DNA from: Chlamydiia bacterium
GTDB taxonomy: Bacteria > Chlamydiota > Chlamydiia > Chlamydiales > GCA-2402025
Direction of reading: 5' to 3'
DNA: 64,000 nt
Assembly (NCBI GenBank): GCA_030427725.1
Contig: JAUICV010000001.1
Location: 605,298-669,297 of the forward strand
The notes under the pieces were generated by a model that was given only the letters and a program-made list of their open reading frames with translations, did not search any database and was not told where the DNA came from. Both the position numbers and the translations under genes were made by a program. Of this stretch, positions 15,077 through 22,528 are shown piece after piece. Numbering within the stretch: position 1 is the first letter of the stretch; each line of letters opens with the position of its first letter.

Positions 15077-16129
15077 ATGAACCAAATATTTAGACTTTGT
15101 ATTGCACTATTTATTCTAATTCAATCAAACACCTATACTTCTCAAAAAGCCAACAACTATGACGTAGTTGGCTTAGGCACGGCTTTTATCGACTATATTA
15201 TTGAGGTTAACGATAAAGAGCTTTCTGATCTCAAGTACAAAAAAGGGTCTTGGGGAGCAATTGATCTGAATAGTTTTCAAACTGTTCTAGATAGTAAAGC
15301 TAAAACCGTCACGACCTCTCCTGGAGGAAGTGGAGGAAATGTAATCAGAGGCCTTGCTAATTTAGGTCAAAAATGTGCTGTGTTAGGTCAAGTTGGCAAC
15401 GACAAACAAGGACTTTTCTATTTGAAAAGTATGGAAAATTTAGCTGTTAAGCCTTTGATGACAAAAACCTCGCAACCAACAGCTCAGGCCATTTGTTTTA
15501 TAACACCTGATGGGCAAAGAACCATGAGATCTTTAGGAGCTGAAAACGAGCAACAAAGCCAGACAAATATCGATAAGCATATTTTCTCTAATGTTAAAGT
15601 ATTCCATGCAGAAGGATATCAGCTCTATAATCTAGATTTTTTTGAAAGATCTTTGAAATACGCAAAAGAGTCAGGCGCAAAAATTTCTATAGACCTCTCT
15701 AGTGTAGAGATTGTCAAACGTTTCAAAGATGAACTCCTAAACATTATACCCAAATACGTAGATATTGTATTCGCTAACGAAGGTGAAGCGTTTGAGTTAA
15801 CTCATTTAAACCCCCAAGAATCCTGTGATTTTATTGCTACTTTATGTGACGTAGCTGTTGTAACTATGGGTGACAAAGGAAGTTGGGCTAAGAGCGGTAA
15901 GATTAAATTCTATACGCCAGCATTTCCTGCAGACACTTTAGACACAACAGGAGCTGGAGACTTGTTTACGAGTGGCTTTTTATACGGATATTTAGAAAAC
16001 GAGCCCCTTCAAAGATGCGCTATTATCGGATCCTTAGTCGCGTCCAAAGTTGTTGAAACTCTTGGAGCCGAAATGTCAAAAGAGACATGGGAAGAGATCG
16101 TAAAGGCAACAAAAGATATCAAGTTTTAA
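15077..16129 (+). CDS. PfkB-family carbohydrate/nucleoside kinase with N-terminal signal-like segment
   Basis: GLGTAFIDY, PGGSGGN, DTTGAGDLFTSGFLYG motifs. N-terminus MNQIFRLCIALFILIQSNTYTS. Confidence 0.75.
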   Translation: MNQIFRLCIALFILIQSNTYTSQKANNYDVVGLGTAFIDYIIEVNDKELSDLKYKKGSWGAIDLNSFQTVLDSKAKTVTTSPGGSGGNVIRGLANLGQKCAVLGQVGNDKQGLFYLKSMENLAVKPLMTKTSQPTAQAICFITPDGQRTMRSLGAENEQQSQTNIDKHIFSNVKVFHAEGYQLYNLDFFERSLKYAKESGAKISIDLSSVEIVKRFKDELLNIIPKYVDIVFANEGEAFELTHLNPQESCDFIATLCDVAVVTMGDKGSWAKSGKIKFYTPAFPADTLDTTGAGDLFTSGFLYGYLENEPLQRCAIIGSLVASKVVETLGAEMSKETWEEIVKATKDIKF

Positions 16130-17628
16130 AACTCTTTTTCAAAAAGAGTTTTATTTAAAATTTGAATAATTTCTTTTTCGTGTCCATCAAGATTGAACCA
16201 AAATGCAAATTGGTGGGCAGCTTGTCTAATAAACATTTCATTTCCAGAAATAATTTTGCACCCCTTGTCTTTTGCATCAGATAAAAGCTTAGTATTAGTA
16301 GACTTTAAGATCGCATCGAGCACAACAACTCCAGGGTCTAGATACAGCTGATTTATAGGTGTTGTATTAGGATTTGTCATACCAACTGTTGTAGTGTTGA
16401 TTAAAACGTTATAGGGCTCGTCAAAAGCTAGCTCGAGTTTCTTAAAATCAAAAGCTTCACAATCAAATTCTTTAGCAAGTTTTAGAGCCTTGTCATAGGT
16501 GCGATTGACGATTTTAACAGTCTTAGCCCCCCTATATTTTGCTTCATAGGCTACTGCCCTAGCCGTTCCACCAGCTCCTAAAATGATACAGGTTTTATTT
16601 TTGATAGGGCATAATTCTTCTATCGCATCTAAGGCTCCTGATGCGTCTGTATTTGTAGTCTTCCAAACGTTATTATCAAATTTCAAGGTGTTTACAGACT
16701 TTATGTTTTTAGAAAGCCGATCTCTTGAAAAGCAAATCTCATAAGCTAACTCTTTGTAAGGAACTGTCACGCTAAACCCTGCAAATCCAAGCCCAAAACA
16801 TCTATCTAGAAAAGGTTTAAACAGATCTCTTTCTAGTTTGATTTTCACATAAATAGCATTCAAGCCAAACGCTTTCATAACTTGATTGTGAGTTTTATGT
16901 GATGGACTTTGGTCTACGGGATTTCCTAGCAATGCGTAGATTTGAGTCATAGGGTTGAGCTCGTTATATCGATAAATATCATGCAATGATCTTGCTGTTA
17001 TCTGACCTGGAGCTGTTGATTCTGATTCATCAGAGCTTGCATAACATATCGGATTTAAAAAAATGGGCGCTAAGATTCTCGATAACTGCCCTATTTCCCC
17101 TAAACAAATGCCAATAAAAGCTGTCCCGGATTGATTTTGTTTCTTTGTAAATTCGAGCATATCAATCACATCTAAAATAGATGCAGGCATTAAAGCCATC
17201 TTATAAAGGTCAGCTTCCCATTGAAATGTAAAATCAAACAGCTTCTCTAAGTTTTTCGATGCAAGGCGAAATTCATGGTAAGAGGCAATGATTTTAACTC
17301 CCGGGCAGAGGTCTTTAATCTTCAAAACCTCTTTATAAGGCGTATTGTACTCTAGATCGATATAATCAGGATTTAAGGGTAAAAACGTTTTAAGTGTTTC
17401 TATTTGTTTGATAGGATCGTTTGAAAACCACCCGCCTTGATTTTCCTTTCTAAGTGTTAAGATAAACGGCTGATCAATACATTCAACAAGAGTGGCAATG
17501 TCTTTGTAAGATAAATTTTGAAAGGTATCTAACCGAATTTCATAACAACCAGCGATGTCTTTCGTTTTTTTTATTTGCTCTAAAGAGCAATCTAAAGATC
17601 TTTTTAATACAACTGTTAGCATAAGCAC
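16126..17628 (-). CDS. aroDE: bifunctional 3-dehydroquinate dehydratase (type I) / shikimate 5-dehydrogenase
   Basis: 500 aa. N-terminal AroD-like half (YEIRLDTF...), C-terminal AroE half (SVTVPYK, ILGAGGTARAVAYE). This fusion is typical of Chlamydiae. Confidence 0.85.
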   Translation of the reverse strand: MLMLTVVLKRSLDCSLEQIKKTKDIAGCYEIRLDTFQNLSYKDIATLVECIDQPFILTLRKENQGGWFSNDPIKQIETLKTFLPLNPDYIDLEYNTPYKEVLKIKDLCPGVKIIASYHEFRLASKNLEKLFDFTFQWEADLYKMALMPASILDVIDMLEFTKKQNQSGTAFIGICLGEIGQLSRILAPIFLNPICYASSDESESTAPGQITARSLHDIYRYNELNPMTQIYALLGNPVDQSPSHKTHNQVMKAFGLNAIYVKIKLERDLFKPFLDRCFGLGFAGFSVTVPYKELAYEICFSRDRLSKNIKSVNTLKFDNNVWKTTNTDASGALDAIEELCPIKNKTCIILGAGGTARAVAYEAKYRGAKTVKIVNRTYDKALKLAKEFDCEAFDFKKLELAFDEPYNVLINTTTVGMTNPNTTPINQLYLDPGVVVLDAILKSTNTKLLSDAKDKGCKIISGNEMFIRQAAHQFAFWFNLDGHEKEIIQILNKTLFEKEF

Positions 17629-17722
17629 TCAAATAGCAAAGCAATAAGTCTCTCACAAAAGATGCTTTTCCAAAACCTAAAAGATCGTTAGTATGTAGAT
17701 TAGAATTTTATATAGGTGTTGT

Positions 17723-20890: not shown

Positions 20891-21435
20891 TGAATCTAAT
20901 CTTGTTTGGGTTTAAATCATCTGGGAAAAGTTATTATGGAAAGCTTTTAGCCTCCCATCTAAACTGTCCATTCATTGATACTGATCAATTAATTGAGCAA
21001 GAATTTAACGAGCAAACAGGACTCGGTTTTTCATGTTATATGATTAATAAAACCTATGGGAACGATTATTTCCGATCTTTAGAAAAAAAAATCATACAGC
21101 AACTAAGTCCTGCACAAAATTCAATCATCTCCTTAGGTGGAGGTACTATTTTATCTCGAAGATCTCAAAATATCTTAAAAAAAATGGGTCTTTTAATTTT
21201 TTTAGACACTCCCAAAAAGATTCTATTTACAAGGCTTTTAAAGGCTAAAAATTTTCCTAGTTTTTTAGACAGCGACAACCGGGAAACCTCGTTTTTAGAA
21301 CATTTTGAGCAAAGATACCCCCTTTATAACTCCCTATTTGATTATAAAATCGATATAAGCACAAAAAGTGATGCTATGGTTTTACAAGAATTGAAAGACC
21401 TATACTTTAAAGGAACGAAATTTAATGTCATATAA
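20890..21435 (+). CDS. aroK: shikimate kinase
   Basis: Walker A GFKSSGKS, DTDQLIE, GGG lid. GTG start shares 1 nt with the aroA stop. Confidence 0.85.
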   Translation: MNLILFGFKSSGKSYYGKLLASHLNCPFIDTDQLIEQEFNEQTGLGFSCYMINKTYGNDYFRSLEKKIIQQLSPAQNSIISLGGGTILSRRSQNILKKMGLLIFLDTPKKILFTRLLKAKNFPSFLDSDNRETSFLEHFEQRYPLYNSLFDYKIDISTKSDAMVLQELKDLYFKGTKFNVI

Positions 21436-22528
21436 TAGTTTTGGAAAGATATTCCGCATCACCACTTGGGGTGAGTCCCATGGAAAAGCTTTAGGCGTTG
21501 TCATTGATGGTTGTCCTGCAGGTCTAGAGATTGATGAAAGCATTATCAATTCTGAGTTAACCCTTAGACAAGGAGGAAAAACTTCTTACACCACACCGAG
21601 GAAAGAGCCCGATATAGCTGAGATCTATTCTGGAATCTTTGAAGGAAAAACAACTGGAGCACCTATTTCCATTATTATAGAAAATAAGGCCTTTGACTCT
21701 AGTAAATATGACACAGTAAAAGACCTGATTAAACCAGGTCATGCTAACTACACTTACTTAAAAAAATATGGCCTTTTTGATCATCGTGGAAGTGGTCGAT
21801 CGTCTGCTAGAGAAACGGTTTGTAGAGTAGCTGCCGGAGCAGTTGCAAAAAAACTATTAGAAAGAGCCAATATCAAGCTTTGCGCTTATTTACACCAAGT
21901 TGGAAACATTAGCTCTAGCATAAACCTAGAAACTCATATTCAAGAAATCAAAACTAAAAGAAATCAAAGTCCTATTTTTTGCCCAGACCCTACTGCATCA
22001 AAAAGCATGATGAACCTTATTGAAACAAGCCTTAATGATAATGATTCTATTGGCGGAATAGTCAGGTTAATCTCATCCCCGTTGCCCGTTGGATTAGGAG
22101 AACCACTTTATTATAAATTTGAAGCTATTTTAGCATCGGCTATGATGAGCATCCCAGCTTCTAAAGGTTTTGAGATAGGATCTGGATTTGCAGCTGCGTC
22201 CTTTAAAGGATCTCAACATAATGACATTCCAACTGTAGATGAGGATAACAACGTAACATTTAACTCAAACAACTCTGGTGGTGTTTTAGGAGGAATTTCA
22301 AACGGCATGCCCTTAGATGTAAAAGTAGCCTTCAAGCCAACATCTTCTATCAAAAAACCTCAAGGTACACTTGATCACAATCTATCGAAACAGGTGTTTA
22401 ATCTTCCGAAAGGATCTAAGCATGATCCATGTGTTGCAATCAGAGCTGTTCCAATTGTTGAATCAATGGCTGCCATTGTCTTGGCAGACCTTATGCTTTG
22501 CATGGGTCATTCAAAAATAGACTCTTAA
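21425..22528 (+). CDS. aroC: chorismate synthase
   Basis: FRITTWGESHGKALGVVIDGCPAGL, RSSARET, 367 aa. Overlaps aroK by 11 nt. Confidence 0.9.
   Translation: MSYNSFGKIFRITTWGESHGKALGVVIDGCPAGLEIDESIINSELTLRQGGKTSYTTPRKEPDIAEIYSGIFEGKTTGAPISIIIENKAFDSSKYDTVKDLIKPGHANYTYLKKYGLFDHRGSGRSSARETVCRVAAGAVAKKLLERANIKLCAYLHQVGNISSSINLETHIQEIKTKRNQSPIFCPDPTASKSMMNLIETSLNDNDSIGGIVRLISSPLPVGLGEPLYYKFEAILASAMMSIPASKGFEIGSGFAAASFKGSQHNDIPTVDEDNNVTFNSNNSGGVLGGISNGMPLDVKVAFKPTSSIKKPQGTLDHNLSKQVFNLPKGSKHDPCVAIRAVPIVESMAAIVLADLMLCMGHSKIDS

Follow-up and report, generated by a model that had tools for sequence, protein, structure and literature searches.

A prephenate dehydratase homologue, probably a pseudoenzyme, heads the shikimate operon of a Chlamydiia bacterium

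The first gene of a shikimate operon in a Chlamydiia bacterium encodes a protein that resembles prephenate dehydratase (PDT) with altered hallmark motifs. This raises the question of whether the product is still a dehydratase, has acquired another function, or is idle. We examined the locus within a window of 64,000 nucleotides, the whole stretch of DNA analysed. We consider it fairly probable (about 0.65) that the product is a pseudoenzyme descended from PDT, coupled in translation to aroB and retained for a role other than prephenate dehydration.

The operon and its first gene

Five overlapping genes in the order PDT-like, aroB, aroA, aroK and aroC occupy positions 17723-22528 (Table 1). A sequence-only reading had described overlaps of 4, 20, 1 and 11 nt and a divergent, fused aroDE, and the ORF coordinates and the Pfam and NCBIfam identities agreed with it; the aroE domain of aroDE exceeded its NCBIfam cut-off. 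The stop of the PDT-like gene and the start of aroB share an ATGA, and aroA starts with TTG, 3' of an AGGAG Shine-Dalgarno sequence. A Shine-Dalgarno-like TAGGTG lies 7-12 nt upstream of the PDT-like ATG. Neither a sigma-70-type site nor an Rfam element was called in the intergenic region between aroDE and this gene, a gap that is occupied by TyrA, DAHP synthase (DAHPS) and chorismate mutase (CM) in intact relatives. The candidate terminator hairpin is 72 nt past the aroC stop, within a spacer of 26% GC.

As the earlier reading had stated, DAHPS was not found in the window: tblastn with chlamydial queries gave no significant match there for DAHPS, CM, TyrA or a class-IV aminotransferase, and Pfam detected no DAHPS in about 50 of the 56 window ORFs of at least 120 aa. 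A CM homologue with a signal peptide and a CM_2 domain, overlooked previously, is encoded 4 kb upstream at 13326-13910; it is of the exported AroQ-gamma type.

Table 1. Features of the shikimate locus (positions in the window)
Feature	Position	Strand	Evidence
aroDE, fused type I 3-dehydroquinate dehydratase / shikimate dehydrogenase	16126..17628	-	Pfam DHquinase_I, Shikimate_dh_N, Shikimate_DH
Divergent intergenic region, presumed promoters	17629..17722	.	94 bp, from sequence
Putative PDT-like pseudoenzyme gene, 256 aa, first gene of operon	17723..18493	+	PF00800, PDB 6vh5, AlphaFold, Foldseek
Remnant of PDT (periplasmic-binding-protein-type, PBP-type) catalytic domain, residues 1-180	17723..18262	+	Alignments
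Altered cleft codons R52/V53	17876-17881	+	
Altered cleft codon E100	18020-18022	+	
Altered cleft codon R102	18026-18028	+	
Altered cleft codons F168/E169	18224-18229	+	
ACT-fold tail, residues 185-254	18275..18484	+	Model secondary structure, structural match, alignment
aroB, 3-dehydroquinate synthase	18490..19623	+	TIGR01357, 332 bits (cut-off 305)
aroA, EPSP synthase	19604..20890	+	TIGR01356, 391 bits, exceeds cut-off
aroK, shikimate kinase	20890..21435	+	PF01202, 112 bits; 1-nt overlap with aroA
aroC, chorismate synthase, last gene of operon	21425..22528	+	TIGR00033, 437 bits; 11-nt overlap with aroK
Terminator-like hairpin with T-rich tail, weak evidence	22600..22619	+	Consensus scan, composition

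The first gene is a true PDT-ACT homologue. The collinearity with PheA-type PDT noted earlier was borne out by PF00800, which matched over profile positions 3-180 of 181 (79 bits, E 4.9e-22), and PDB 6vh5 matched by sequence (E 7e-13). An open frame of 256 codons has a chance probability of about 6e-9; the other five frames hold 14-31 stops each. The AlphaFold model (pLDDT 91.9, pTM 0.86) indicates a fully preserved PDT fold and matched the PDT structures 6vh5, 2qmx and 7am0 in Foldseek at TM 0.85-0.87 (6vh5, 0.87). Canonical PheA/PDT proteins (EC 4.2.1.51; PF00800 plus ACT; 6vh5, 2qmx, 2qmw, 3mwb) share with it the two-subdomain PBP-type fold plus ACT, collinear over the full length (TM 0.80-0.87), significant sequence homology and linkage to aromatic-pathway genes. 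However, the window protein scores far under the NCBIfam equivalog cut-offs (65 bits vs 359; 63 vs 219) and lacks the TRF Thr/Arg, the PIEN Glu/Asn, the SHPQ His/Gln, ESRP and an adjacent CM. MqnA of the futalosine pathway (PF02621; 7ahr, 7an7), a dehydratase acting on a chorismate-pathway cyclohexadiene and relevant to chlamydial menaquinone synthesis, was rejected as a relative; its PBP-type fold resembles the model remotely (TM about 0.28), with no sequence relationship.

Loss of the cleft residues and of the ACT ligand motifs

The TRF triad, including its threonine, is reported to be critical for catalysis (PMC13217925). When the window protein was aligned with 127 canonical PDTs, all polar cleft residues were found replaced (E52R, N53V, H100E, Q102R, T168F and R169E), together with P50V, E76H, H83L and S99V. 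Canonical occupancy is 90% for E, 97% for N and 84% for H, and 77% for R of TRF; Phe stands in the catalytic Thr column, which is 98% conserved. The PIEN, SHPQA and TRF motifs are thus altered as the sequence-only reading had claimed, with the alignment now assigning L51-R52-V53-L54 to PIEN(S), V99-E100-P101-R102-A103 to SHPQA (R102 in the Gln column) and N166-T167-F168-E169-F170 to N-x-T-R-F. Near-invariant family columns were kept at 21 of 41 positions, namely structural Gly, Pro and hydrophobic ones, whereas the polar cleft columns were all lost.

In a still-working prephenate or arogenate dehydratase with a non-canonical site, T167, one residue ahead of the canonical position (NNTFEF), might for example substitute for the lost Thr, with prephenate coming from the CM_2-domain protein encoded nearby. 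Prephenate dehydration is chemically facile, which favours this, and CM-linked chlamydial PDTs already show substitutions of the TRF Arg (H, Y, T, Q). However, the alignment is ungapped and flanked by the conserved D162, N166 and F170, which places Phe in the Thr column, and a neighbouring residue on a beta-strand would point the other way. The near-invariant Asn, the substrate-binding Glu and the His were lost together. The nearby CM, having a signal peptide, would not supply cytoplasmic prephenate, and the locus has no TyrA, aminotransferase or cytoplasmic CM. We therefore regard a working dehydratase as very unlikely; judged from its sequence, the window protein has probably lost prephenate dehydration.

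The ACT-like tail noted earlier was supported by alignment with the canonical IESRPS members P0010 and P0018, by a predicted beta-alpha-beta-beta-alpha-beta arrangement and by the full-length structural match to PDT-ACT chains, although no Pfam ACT model matched. The tail has IENVVE in place of the IESRPS that carries the Phe-binding ESRP motif, its GALV region is unrecognisable, and its last residues read LGAYKL instead of the family's LGSYP. Amino acids are common ligands of ACT domains (PMC13217925), and an ACT fold retained in the model of a protein heading the pathway operon might suggest an aromatic-amino-acid sensor that binds Phe, Tyr or Trp and feedback-regulates the trunk pathway. 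However, the ESRP and GALV motifs were lost across the aroB-linked chlamydial clade, catalytically intact members included, and the ACT part is both unmatched in Pfam and lowest in model confidence (pLDDT 71-90). Such a sensor is hardly credible, and the ligand-sensing regulator offered by the earlier reading gained no specific support, the former active-site loop also being polymorphic within one population.

Repeated erosion and purifying selection in Chlamydiota

The closest context was found in an aroB-linked PDT clade of environmental Chlamydiota (loci L007-L038; Simkaniaceae M30B2 and TPBF_219; Chlamydiae bacterium OFTM116, OFTM164 and OFTM179; XBO_Chlam_UCL). These PDTs, 24-30% identical to the window protein, share the position 5' of aroB-aroA-aroK-aroC, the ATGA overlap, divergent aroDE and degenerate ACT motifs. 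Both N53 and the catalytic Thr (TRF, THF, TYF or TTF), which the window protein has lost, are present in them. An intact CM_2 gene, which the window lacks at this position, lies directly 5' of the Thr-retaining PDT in six of seven loci (L007, L011, L015, L017, L031, L038); DAHPS and TyrA are also present where these were scanned with Pfam or tblastn, the DAHPS of L038 being disrupted by an insertion. The full module of these Chlamydiota MAGs is TyrA (minus strand), DAHPS, CM, PDT and then aroBAKC. In the seventh locus, L037, TyrA is missing and frameshifts have reduced CM and DAHPS to remnants; what is left of CM shows 56% identity to its orthologue, whereas the adjacent PDT is intact at 89%, with dN/dS of 0.09-0.10, similar to aroB and aroA.

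In the window lineage and at least three others, the locus lacks DAHPS, CM and TyrA, and the catalytic residues are lost, yet the gene remains directly upstream of aroB (L001 and L091, with P0007 and P0162; L085, P0026; L087 and L088, P0023; L089 and L092, P0015). The window and nine of 12 related loci have the ATGA overlap; aroDE is divergent in L001, L085, L091 and most Chlamydiota MAG loci. In the Chlamydiota loci compared for gene order, as proposed earlier, the PDT or PDT-like gene stayed directly upstream of aroB. The link between erosion and context is imperfect, since P0008 has canonical motifs although no CM could be recognised in the 1.1 kb of upstream sequence at hand. The window and L001 were sisters in 200 of 200 replicates and the eroded lineages grouped together in none of 200; erosion is not monophyletic.

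We found no close relative of the window gene in any collection searched, so selection on it is judged by extrapolation, from the sister lineage and a second eroded lineage. Between L001 and L091, the sister lineage, dN/dS was 0.073 for the PDT-like gene and 0.062 for AroDE, with 12.5 nonsynonymous and 36.5 synonymous changes (binomial P 1e-16 against neutrality). In the separately eroded P0015 cluster it was 0.13-0.16, compared with 0.07-0.26 for AroB; all pairs came from clusters at 90% protein identity or more, an ascertainment bias. The alignment of the window protein with P0007 spans 255 residues and contains just one 1-residue indel, at a divergence where AroC is just 61% identical and synonymous sites are saturated. 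These results show that the eroded orthologues are under strong purifying selection (dN/dS 0.07-0.16) and that the eroded gene is not decaying, on the window branch by extrapolation from relatives. Eroded genes nevertheless outpace their neighbours (PDT/AroB identity 31/43, 25/42 and 18/40%, compared with about 1:1 in intact lineages), which indicates reduced constraint.

This faster evolution, the widely conserved ATGA and the absent or decaying Phe/Tyr branch would suit a non-functional relic whose frame is kept because aroB translation and operon expression need ribosomes to reach the ATGA, the protein being idle; the dN/dS values, moreover, come from relatives rather than from the window gene itself. 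However, selection against stops alone would not yield the ratios observed, nor would it preserve a confidently predicted fold, the PF00800 score or a near-gapless alignment with P0007 despite saturation, and in L037 a neutral CM remnant lies beside a conserved PDT. A mere relic is accordingly improbable.

Possible roles of the retained protein

Purifying selection equal to that on genuine enzymes, and co-transcription with the chorismate pathway, could also point to a neofunctionalised enzyme whose remodelled cleft (R52, E100, R102, hydrophobic F168, E169) binds and transforms another substrate; chorismate and other cyclohexene carboxylates are candidates, on the way to menaquinone or a different product derived from chorismate. 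The cleft is charged, and a basic residue at column 52 with Glu at 169 is common to the window protein, P0007 and P0026. Fold precedents are MqnA, a chorismate dehydratase, and the PDT homologue GqqA of Komagataeibacter europaeus (7am0; TM 0.87, among the best structural matches), whose N-acyl-homoserine-lactone acylase activity shows that the PDT-ACT scaffold is usable beyond Phe synthesis. However, T174 in the cleft and E55 are preserved in GqqA, whereas the window protein lost their counterparts, and complementation of an E. coli pheA mutant by GqqA is still observed (PMC8192741); T174 is the cleft Thr. The residues seen across the eroded lineages are R, K, R, Y, Y and I at column 52 and E, E, E, R, T and T at column 169; no replacement set in the alignment is common to all, which gives no pointer to one shared new function. 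Only hydrophobic residues (F, L, I, I, M, I) now occupy the catalytic Thr column, and the polymorphic former active-site loop belongs to the natural P0015 population. Since MqnA (CT427) is present in Chlamydiaceae and the classic isochorismate route serves other families (PMC3937554), there is no obvious enzymatic gap to fill. A new enzyme thus seems unlikely.

The pseudoenzyme in first position, not a working dehydratase, that the sequence-only reading had proposed is supported by the lost cleft, the kept fold, position and ATGA coupling maintained across deep divergence and selection in eroded orthologues. We infer that it is kept for a non-catalytic task connected with the shikimate enzymes translated alongside it, most likely that of a structural or regulatory partner, or the binding of a pathway metabolite in a cleft that would now be lined by R52, E100, R102 and E169. 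Its translation probably also drives that of aroB.

Precedents by analogy are HisZ, a HisRS paralogue without catalytic activity that acts as a regulator of the ATP-PRT HisG, and the CM-like regulatory domain that Bacillus and Listeria carry on their DAHP synthase as a fusion. In both, a pathway-enzyme homologue with lost or reduced catalysis was kept by selection for a non-catalytic role in its pathway operon, as proposed here; they have demonstrated partners and mechanisms, whereas the window protein is known from sequence and model, and the likeness would be of mechanism, not of family. The shikimate cluster of Chlamydiaceae is, to our knowledge, not reported to contain a PDT-like gene; if it indeed has none, some lineages can do without the protein.

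The evolutionary explanation missing from the earlier reading is a remnant DAHPS-CM-PDT-aroBAKC supraoperon with repeated erosion. The ancestral Chlamydiota arrangement comprised TyrA on the opposite strand, DAHP synthase, AroQ CM, PDT and aroB-aroA-aroK-aroC, with aroDE divergent. In the window lineage, DAHP synthase, CM and TyrA are absent from the locus and the chorismate trunk genes were retained, plausibly for menaquinone synthesis; the PDT gene then lost all polar cleft residues and escaped deletion. Relatives thus show the PDT-like gene to be the leftover of a larger aromatic amino-acid operon, repeatedly eroded and, judging from eroded orthologues, still selectively kept.

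Operon layout and fold of the PDT-like protein

The sequence-only reading had placed a prephenate dehydratase (PDT)-like gene at the head of aroB, aroA, aroK and aroC, with overlaps of 4, 20, 1 and 11 nt and a divergent fused aroDE. The ORF coordinates matched both the overlaps and the divergent orientation, and the gene set and order were exactly as listed, with Pfam and NCBIfam in agreement on every identity. A Shine-Dalgarno-like purine run precedes every operon start codon. A 256-codon open frame would arise by chance at the given composition with P ~6e-9, and the other five frames contain 14-31 stops each. 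An ATGA overlap joins the PDT-like gene to aroB in the window, and 9 of 12 related loci have it too. No Rfam match (E up to 1, positions 12000-24000) to a regulatory RNA or attenuator was found in the operon leader. A sigma-70 promoter scan was uninformative, returning fewer sites than shuffled sequence and none in the leader.

Features of the aro region and its surroundings in the window
Feature	Coordinates	Strand	Basis or remark
SET-domain protein	8238-9092	-	
Na+/dicarboxylate (SodiT-type) symporter	9140-10549	-	
Sulfotransferase-domain protein	11649-12416	-	one flank of aro region
Exported chorismate mutase homologue	13326-13910	+	194 aa; CM_2 36.7 bits
ORF	14003-14743	-	no Pfam match
PfkB-family sugar kinase	15077-16129	+	
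aroDE, fused	16126-17628	-	divergent from operon; Pfam + NCBIfam
Intergenic spacer aroDE/PDT-like			94 bp
PDT-like gene	17723-18493	+	Pfam PF00800
aroB	18490-19623	+	Pfam + NCBIfam
aroA	19604-20890	+	Pfam + NCBIfam
aroK	20890-21435	+	Pfam + NCBIfam
aroC	21425-22528	+	Pfam + NCBIfam
ORF	23067-23948	+	no Pfam match
Membrane-anchored sulfatase-family protein	24877-26793	-	LTA-synthase/PEA-transferase-like architecture; other flank of aro region
ORF region	38275-41510	-	no Pfam match

Several neighbours were recorded in their own right. The PfkB-family kinase has a hydrophobic N-terminus, scores under all NCBIfam equivalog cut-offs, and shares 4 nt with aroDE where the two 3' ends meet; the same adjacency was seen in L015 (two tandem copies), L031, L037, L038 and L085. 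Sulfotransferases, one of which flanks the region, are unusual in bacteria. Many sizeable ORFs in the window, those in the table among them, lack a Pfam match; their products include proteins of 293, 246, 503 and 499 aa. The 293-aa ORF just past aroC has hydrophobic segments and a proline-rich repeat (SAPPMP, twice), and is reminiscent of chlamydial inclusion-membrane or effector proteins.

The PDT-like product (the window protein) matched PF00800 with 79 bits (E 4.9e-22; gathering cut-off 25.2 bits) over profile positions 3-180 of 181, so the collinearity with PDT claimed from sequence held over nearly the entire profile. An exhaustive HMMER search with it returned 610 PDT-family proteins, and its best solved-structure sequence match was the Brucella PDT 6vh5 (E 7e-13). 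An AlphaFold model from a 19-sequence family alignment was confident (pLDDT 91.9, pTM 0.86) and predicted a two-subdomain PBP-type fold followed by an ACT fold. Foldseek aligned the model at full length (~270 columns) with TM scores of 0.87 to 6vh5, 0.85 to 2qmx and 0.87 to GqqA (7am0). For the proposed ACT-like tail, no Pfam ACT model matched; the tail is nonetheless real, since residues 185-254 of the model form a beta-alpha-beta-beta-alpha-beta unit. These results place the window protein in the PDT homology family PF00800.

Loss of active-site and ligand motifs

The window protein was compared with 127 canonical PDTs, in which 41 columns are at least 70% conserved; active-site statements are based on PMC13217925 and PMC8192741, and columns carry the residue numbers of the window protein. 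It keeps 21 of the 41 near-invariant columns, and those kept are structural (G7, G10, G57, P101, C107, A141, D162, N166, F170, G252, Y254 and the hydrophobic core). The polar cleft residues are all replaced in this alignment. In the TRF motif, the column of the catalytic Thr (T278 in E. coli), which is Thr in 98% of the canonical PDTs, has F168, and the following column, 77% Arg, shows R169E. Catalysis by the E. coli and C. glutamicum PDTs is reported to depend critically on the TRF triad (PMC13217925). The alignment of this region is ungapped and anchored at D162, N166 and F170, and therefore the Thr of 'NNTFEF' lies one position ahead of the catalytic column. The Glu-Asn pair of the PIEN loop (E. 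coli E159/N160) carries E52R (column 90% Glu) and N53V (97% Asn), the SHPQA region carries H100E (84% His) and Q102R, and further replacements are P50V, E76H, H83L and S99V. The changes reported earlier for the PIEN, SHPQA and TRF motifs were thus all present in the corresponding columns.

The ACT unit keeps its fold alone. The Phe-binding motifs ESRP and GALV are missing, with IENVVE in the window protein where canonical PDTs have IESRPS. An ACT-based amino-acid sensor, which such a fold might accommodate, is therefore hardly credible. NCBIfam equivalog scores were below the cut-offs for NF008866 (65 vs 359 bits), NF008865 (63 vs 219) and NF007910 (26 vs 577). The window protein accordingly falls outside functional PheA by catalytic Thr, Glu-Asn pair, His-Pro-Gln, ESRP and equivalog score. 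A still-working dehydratase appears highly improbable with these residues replaced, and judged by its sequence the protein should not be annotated as prephenate dehydratase. Clear PDT homology together with the loss of key catalytic residues supports its status as a putative pseudoenzyme.

The window protein, P0007 and P0026 (PDT-family proteins of loci L001 and L085) share a basic residue in column 52 and Glu in column 169, a charge arrangement opposite to the canonical Glu and Arg. Among family members with partial erosion, a basic column 52 usually pairs with a non-basic column 169. Because charge co-varies at both columns, we suggest that positions 52 and 169 interact and that a salt bridge may have been kept with its polarity reversed.

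Ancestral supraoperon, repeated erosion and selection

A word-indexed protein search with the window protein returned only itself, the same search with a family alignment gave 8 matches with poor recall, and a reference-genome contig scan with the window protein alone gave no match. Chlamydial and archaeal loci were found by a reference-genome scan with a family alignment. It recovered Chlamydiota MAGs (Chlamydiae bacterium OFTM116, OFTM164 and OFTM179, Simkaniaceae M30B2 and TPBF_219, XBO_Chlam_UCL and others) and archaea (Woesearchaeota, Methanoregula and others). Among the matches of the exhaustive HMMER search, the nearest relatives of the window protein form a set of 240-270 aa, the best being P0007 (30% identity at full length, E 7e-32). 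Its locus, L001, has the window arrangement of aroDE(-), PDT-like, aroB, aroA, aroK and aroC with the same ATGA overlap.

In the environmental MAG loci L007, L011, L015, L017, L031, L037 and L038, PDT also lies directly before aroB-aroA-aroK-aroC and aroDE is divergent, so that the gene order first noted in the window recurs in Chlamydiota. The aroDE-PDT gap of these loci holds TyrA (prephenate dehydrogenase) on the minus strand, a type I-beta DAHP synthase (DAHPS) with a ferredoxin-like N-domain, and a 91-100-aa AroQ chorismate mutase (CM) directly upstream of PDT; a class-IV aminotransferase is also present in L015. Their PDTs retain N53 and the catalytic Thr (TRF, THF, TYF or TTF). The window has the core of this supraoperon, a PDT-like gene overlapping aroB, then aroA-aroK-aroC, and a divergent aroDE. 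DAHPS, AroQ CM and TyrA are absent between aroDE and the PDT-like gene, where there is only the intergenic spacer. A tblastn search across the 64-kb window found no trace of DAHPS, CM or TyrA, in agreement with the earlier statement that it contains no DAHP synthase. Because the orthologous MAG loci carry TyrA, DAHPS and CM in the aroDE-PDT gap, the window locus is a cut-down chlamydial aromatic supraoperon, one that no longer has DAHPS or the Phe/Tyr-specific genes.

A SET-domain protein, a SodiT-type transporter, a TPR protein and an exported CM lie near the aro locus both in the MAGs and in the window, and this shared regional synteny supports a Chlamydiota origin of the window. In L092 the SET/SodiT pair likewise precedes the aro operon, and L011, L017, L031 and L089 also have the transporter. 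The exported CM homologue of the window carries a clear signal peptide at its N-terminus (MKKITIALTAFVALFGAFSFA); among solved structures it is closest to the exported AroQ-gamma CMs of Burkholderia (6cnz, E 4e-10) and M. tuberculosis (Rv1885c, 2f6l), and homologues lie near the aro locus in L007, L011 and L017. The window has this exported form, and the cytoplasmic CM is missing from its aro locus.

A bacterial-style supraoperon was also seen in Woesearchaeota and other DPANN MAGs (L005 469-12177, L013, L025 and ~20 other archaeal loci), in the order FXD-DAHPS, aroB, fused aroDE, aroA, aroK, aroC, TyrA, PDT, then PheRS alpha and beta. Outside the chlamydiae, no PDTs are closer to the chlamydial PDT than these; either the module as a whole may have moved between domains, or the contigs may be mis-binned. 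P0011 (NCBI PCI95388.1), which belongs to the aroB-linked PDTs of chlamydiae and has a TYF variant and a truncated ACT, was deposited as 'Candidatus Aerophobetes bacterium' and is a 'hypothetical protein' at NCBI; its contig may be mis-binned chlamydial.

Both N53 and T168 were lost in 7 sequences from 5 lineages (the window protein; P0007, P0162; P0026; P0014; P0023; P0015). The Thr column holds F, L, L, I, I, M and I in these sequences, always a hydrophobic residue. Where the context is known (L001 and L091, L085, L087 and L088, L089 and L092), the eroded gene lies directly upstream of aroB with no adjacent CM, DAHPS or TyrA. A weak CM-like tblastn match in L085 was rejected as spurious, lying inside the aroDE coding region. 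P0008 is an exception to the correlation of erosion with branch-gene loss, having canonical motifs and no recognisable CM in the 1.1 kb of upstream sequence available. In a neighbour-joining tree of concatenated AroB, AroA, AroK, AroDE and AroC, the window and L001 were sisters in 200/200 replicates; the eroded lineages formed one clade in 0/200, and resolution was poor at deep nodes and for L087 and L089, which are partial loci. Since the eroded lineages never formed one clade, PDT was eroded more than once.

Earlier steps were found in two MAG loci. In L037 (XBO_Chlam_UCL; 7100-8000), DAHPS and CM are frameshifted fragments, the CM remnant sharing 56% identity with its orthologue, and TyrA has been deleted; this locus is an intermediate stage of pathway decay. 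In L038 (Simkaniaceae M30B2; 5860-7730), a ~770-bp insertion splits DAHPS, and CM, TyrA and PDT are intact.

PDT and AroB identities are about equal in intact lineages (43/41, 40/46 and 36/42%), and are 31/43, 25/42 and 18/40% in eroded ones. Because PDT identity falls below that of AroB in the latter, constraint on eroded PDT is lowered, not abolished. We compared P0007 with P0162 (L091), its natural variant in the sister lineage of the window. With variant pairs taken from clusters of at least 90% identity and Nei-Gojobori estimates that are approximate, the PDT-like gene showed 12.5 nonsynonymous and 36.5 synonymous changes (dN/dS 0.073), and AroDE on the same contigs a dN/dS of 0.062. The neutral expectation is ~80% nonsynonymous (binomial P 1e-16). 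The separately eroded P0015 lineage (13 variants) gave 0.13-0.16 vs 0.07-0.26 for AroB (P ~1e-5 to 1e-6). As a control, the L037 PDT beside the dead CM gave 0.09-0.10 at 89% identity, equal to aroB and aroA. These results show that purifying selection has acted on the eroded orthologues since their catalytic residues were lost.

No close relative of the window gene was found in the protein, reference-genome and metagenome collections searched. A metagenome scan with the window protein gave no match, and one with the window/P0007 alignment gave only unrelated canonical PDTs matching the DEKNN pattern. The window protein and P0007 differ by one 1-residue indel over 255 residues, and their AroC proteins are only 61% identical. 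The intact frame, conserved fold and near-gapless alignment with P0007 point indirectly to selection on the window gene. The earlier view of a pseudoenzyme instead of a working dehydratase thus gains support from the lost catalytic residues, the PDT fold and the purifying selection on eroded orthologues.

Proposed role and significance

We propose that a PDT-ACT protein with neither PDT catalytic nor Phe-binding residues, first in the aroBAKC operon, is retained for a non-catalytic role tied to the co-expressed trunk enzymes. Phenylpyruvate production would have been lost. Cytoplasmic prephenate is probably not made any longer, because the operon CM is lost and the sole nearby CM homologue is of the exported type. 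Translation of the PDT-like ORF may deliver ribosomes to aroB. That the ORF is retained for coupling alone, which the ATGA overlap would fit, seems very unlikely beside the low dN/dS of the eroded orthologues. The trunk pathway is plausibly kept for menaquinone, which chlamydiae make from chorismate (PMC3937554). The idea that the protein is an analogue of MqnA, as a chorismate dehydratase repurposed for the futalosine pathway, was rejected: structural similarity to MqnA is limited to the general PBP fold, and Chlamydiaceae have MqnA while other chlamydial families use the classic menaquinone route (PMC3937554).

GqqA shows that the PDT scaffold can adopt other chemistry, and a new enzymatic activity of the PDT-like protein would have this precedent. 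GqqA, however, has retained the cleft Thr that the window protein lacks, and it can still rescue a pheA mutant (PMC8192741). The replacement residues differ among eroded lineages, and the former PIEN loop is polymorphic in the P0015 population (for example LISTQTG, LIRTQMG and LISTQNG), which argues against a common new active site. We regard such an activity as rather unlikely. A broader and speculative possibility, to which we give limited credence, is that the eroded chlamydial PDT-ACT proteins form a new functional family. A metabolite of the chorismate pathway would be bound or converted in their charge-swapped cleft (basic column 52 and Glu 169 in the window protein, P0007 and P0026), or the proteins would associate with a trunk enzyme, for instance AroB. 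For a non-catalytic role, a functional analogy may be drawn with relics of pathway enzymes that persist as regulators, such as HisZ and, in some DAHP synthases, the CM-like regulatory domain.

The searchable literature held no description of a PDT-derived pseudoenzyme, nor of this chlamydial supraoperon and its decay series. The window protein would be a pseudoenzyme from a well-known enzyme family. The original observation was borne out, and its interpretation was supported and extended by the ancestral supraoperon and the repeated erosion. Automated annotation will label the gene 'prephenate dehydratase', as UniRef already names P0011, and would thereby introduce a false Phe-synthesis step into metabolic reconstructions of chlamydia-like organisms. 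The loci provide a natural time series of pathway reduction, from an intact supraoperon through pseudogenised DAHPS and CM (L037) to clean gene loss with an eroded PDT on which selection still acts. The same outcome in lineages that do not group together makes a tractable case for why a dead enzyme heads an operon; coupled translation, a scaffold function and a new ligand are the candidate reasons. The recurrent 'dead but kept' pattern with its decay series is unusual and testable. It may also indicate that the chorismate trunk, which feeds menaquinone in chlamydiae, has a regulator that has gone unrecognised. If the new-family proposal were true, obligate intracellular bacteria that have abandoned Phe/Tyr synthesis would have a new point at which the supply of chorismate and menaquinone is controlled.
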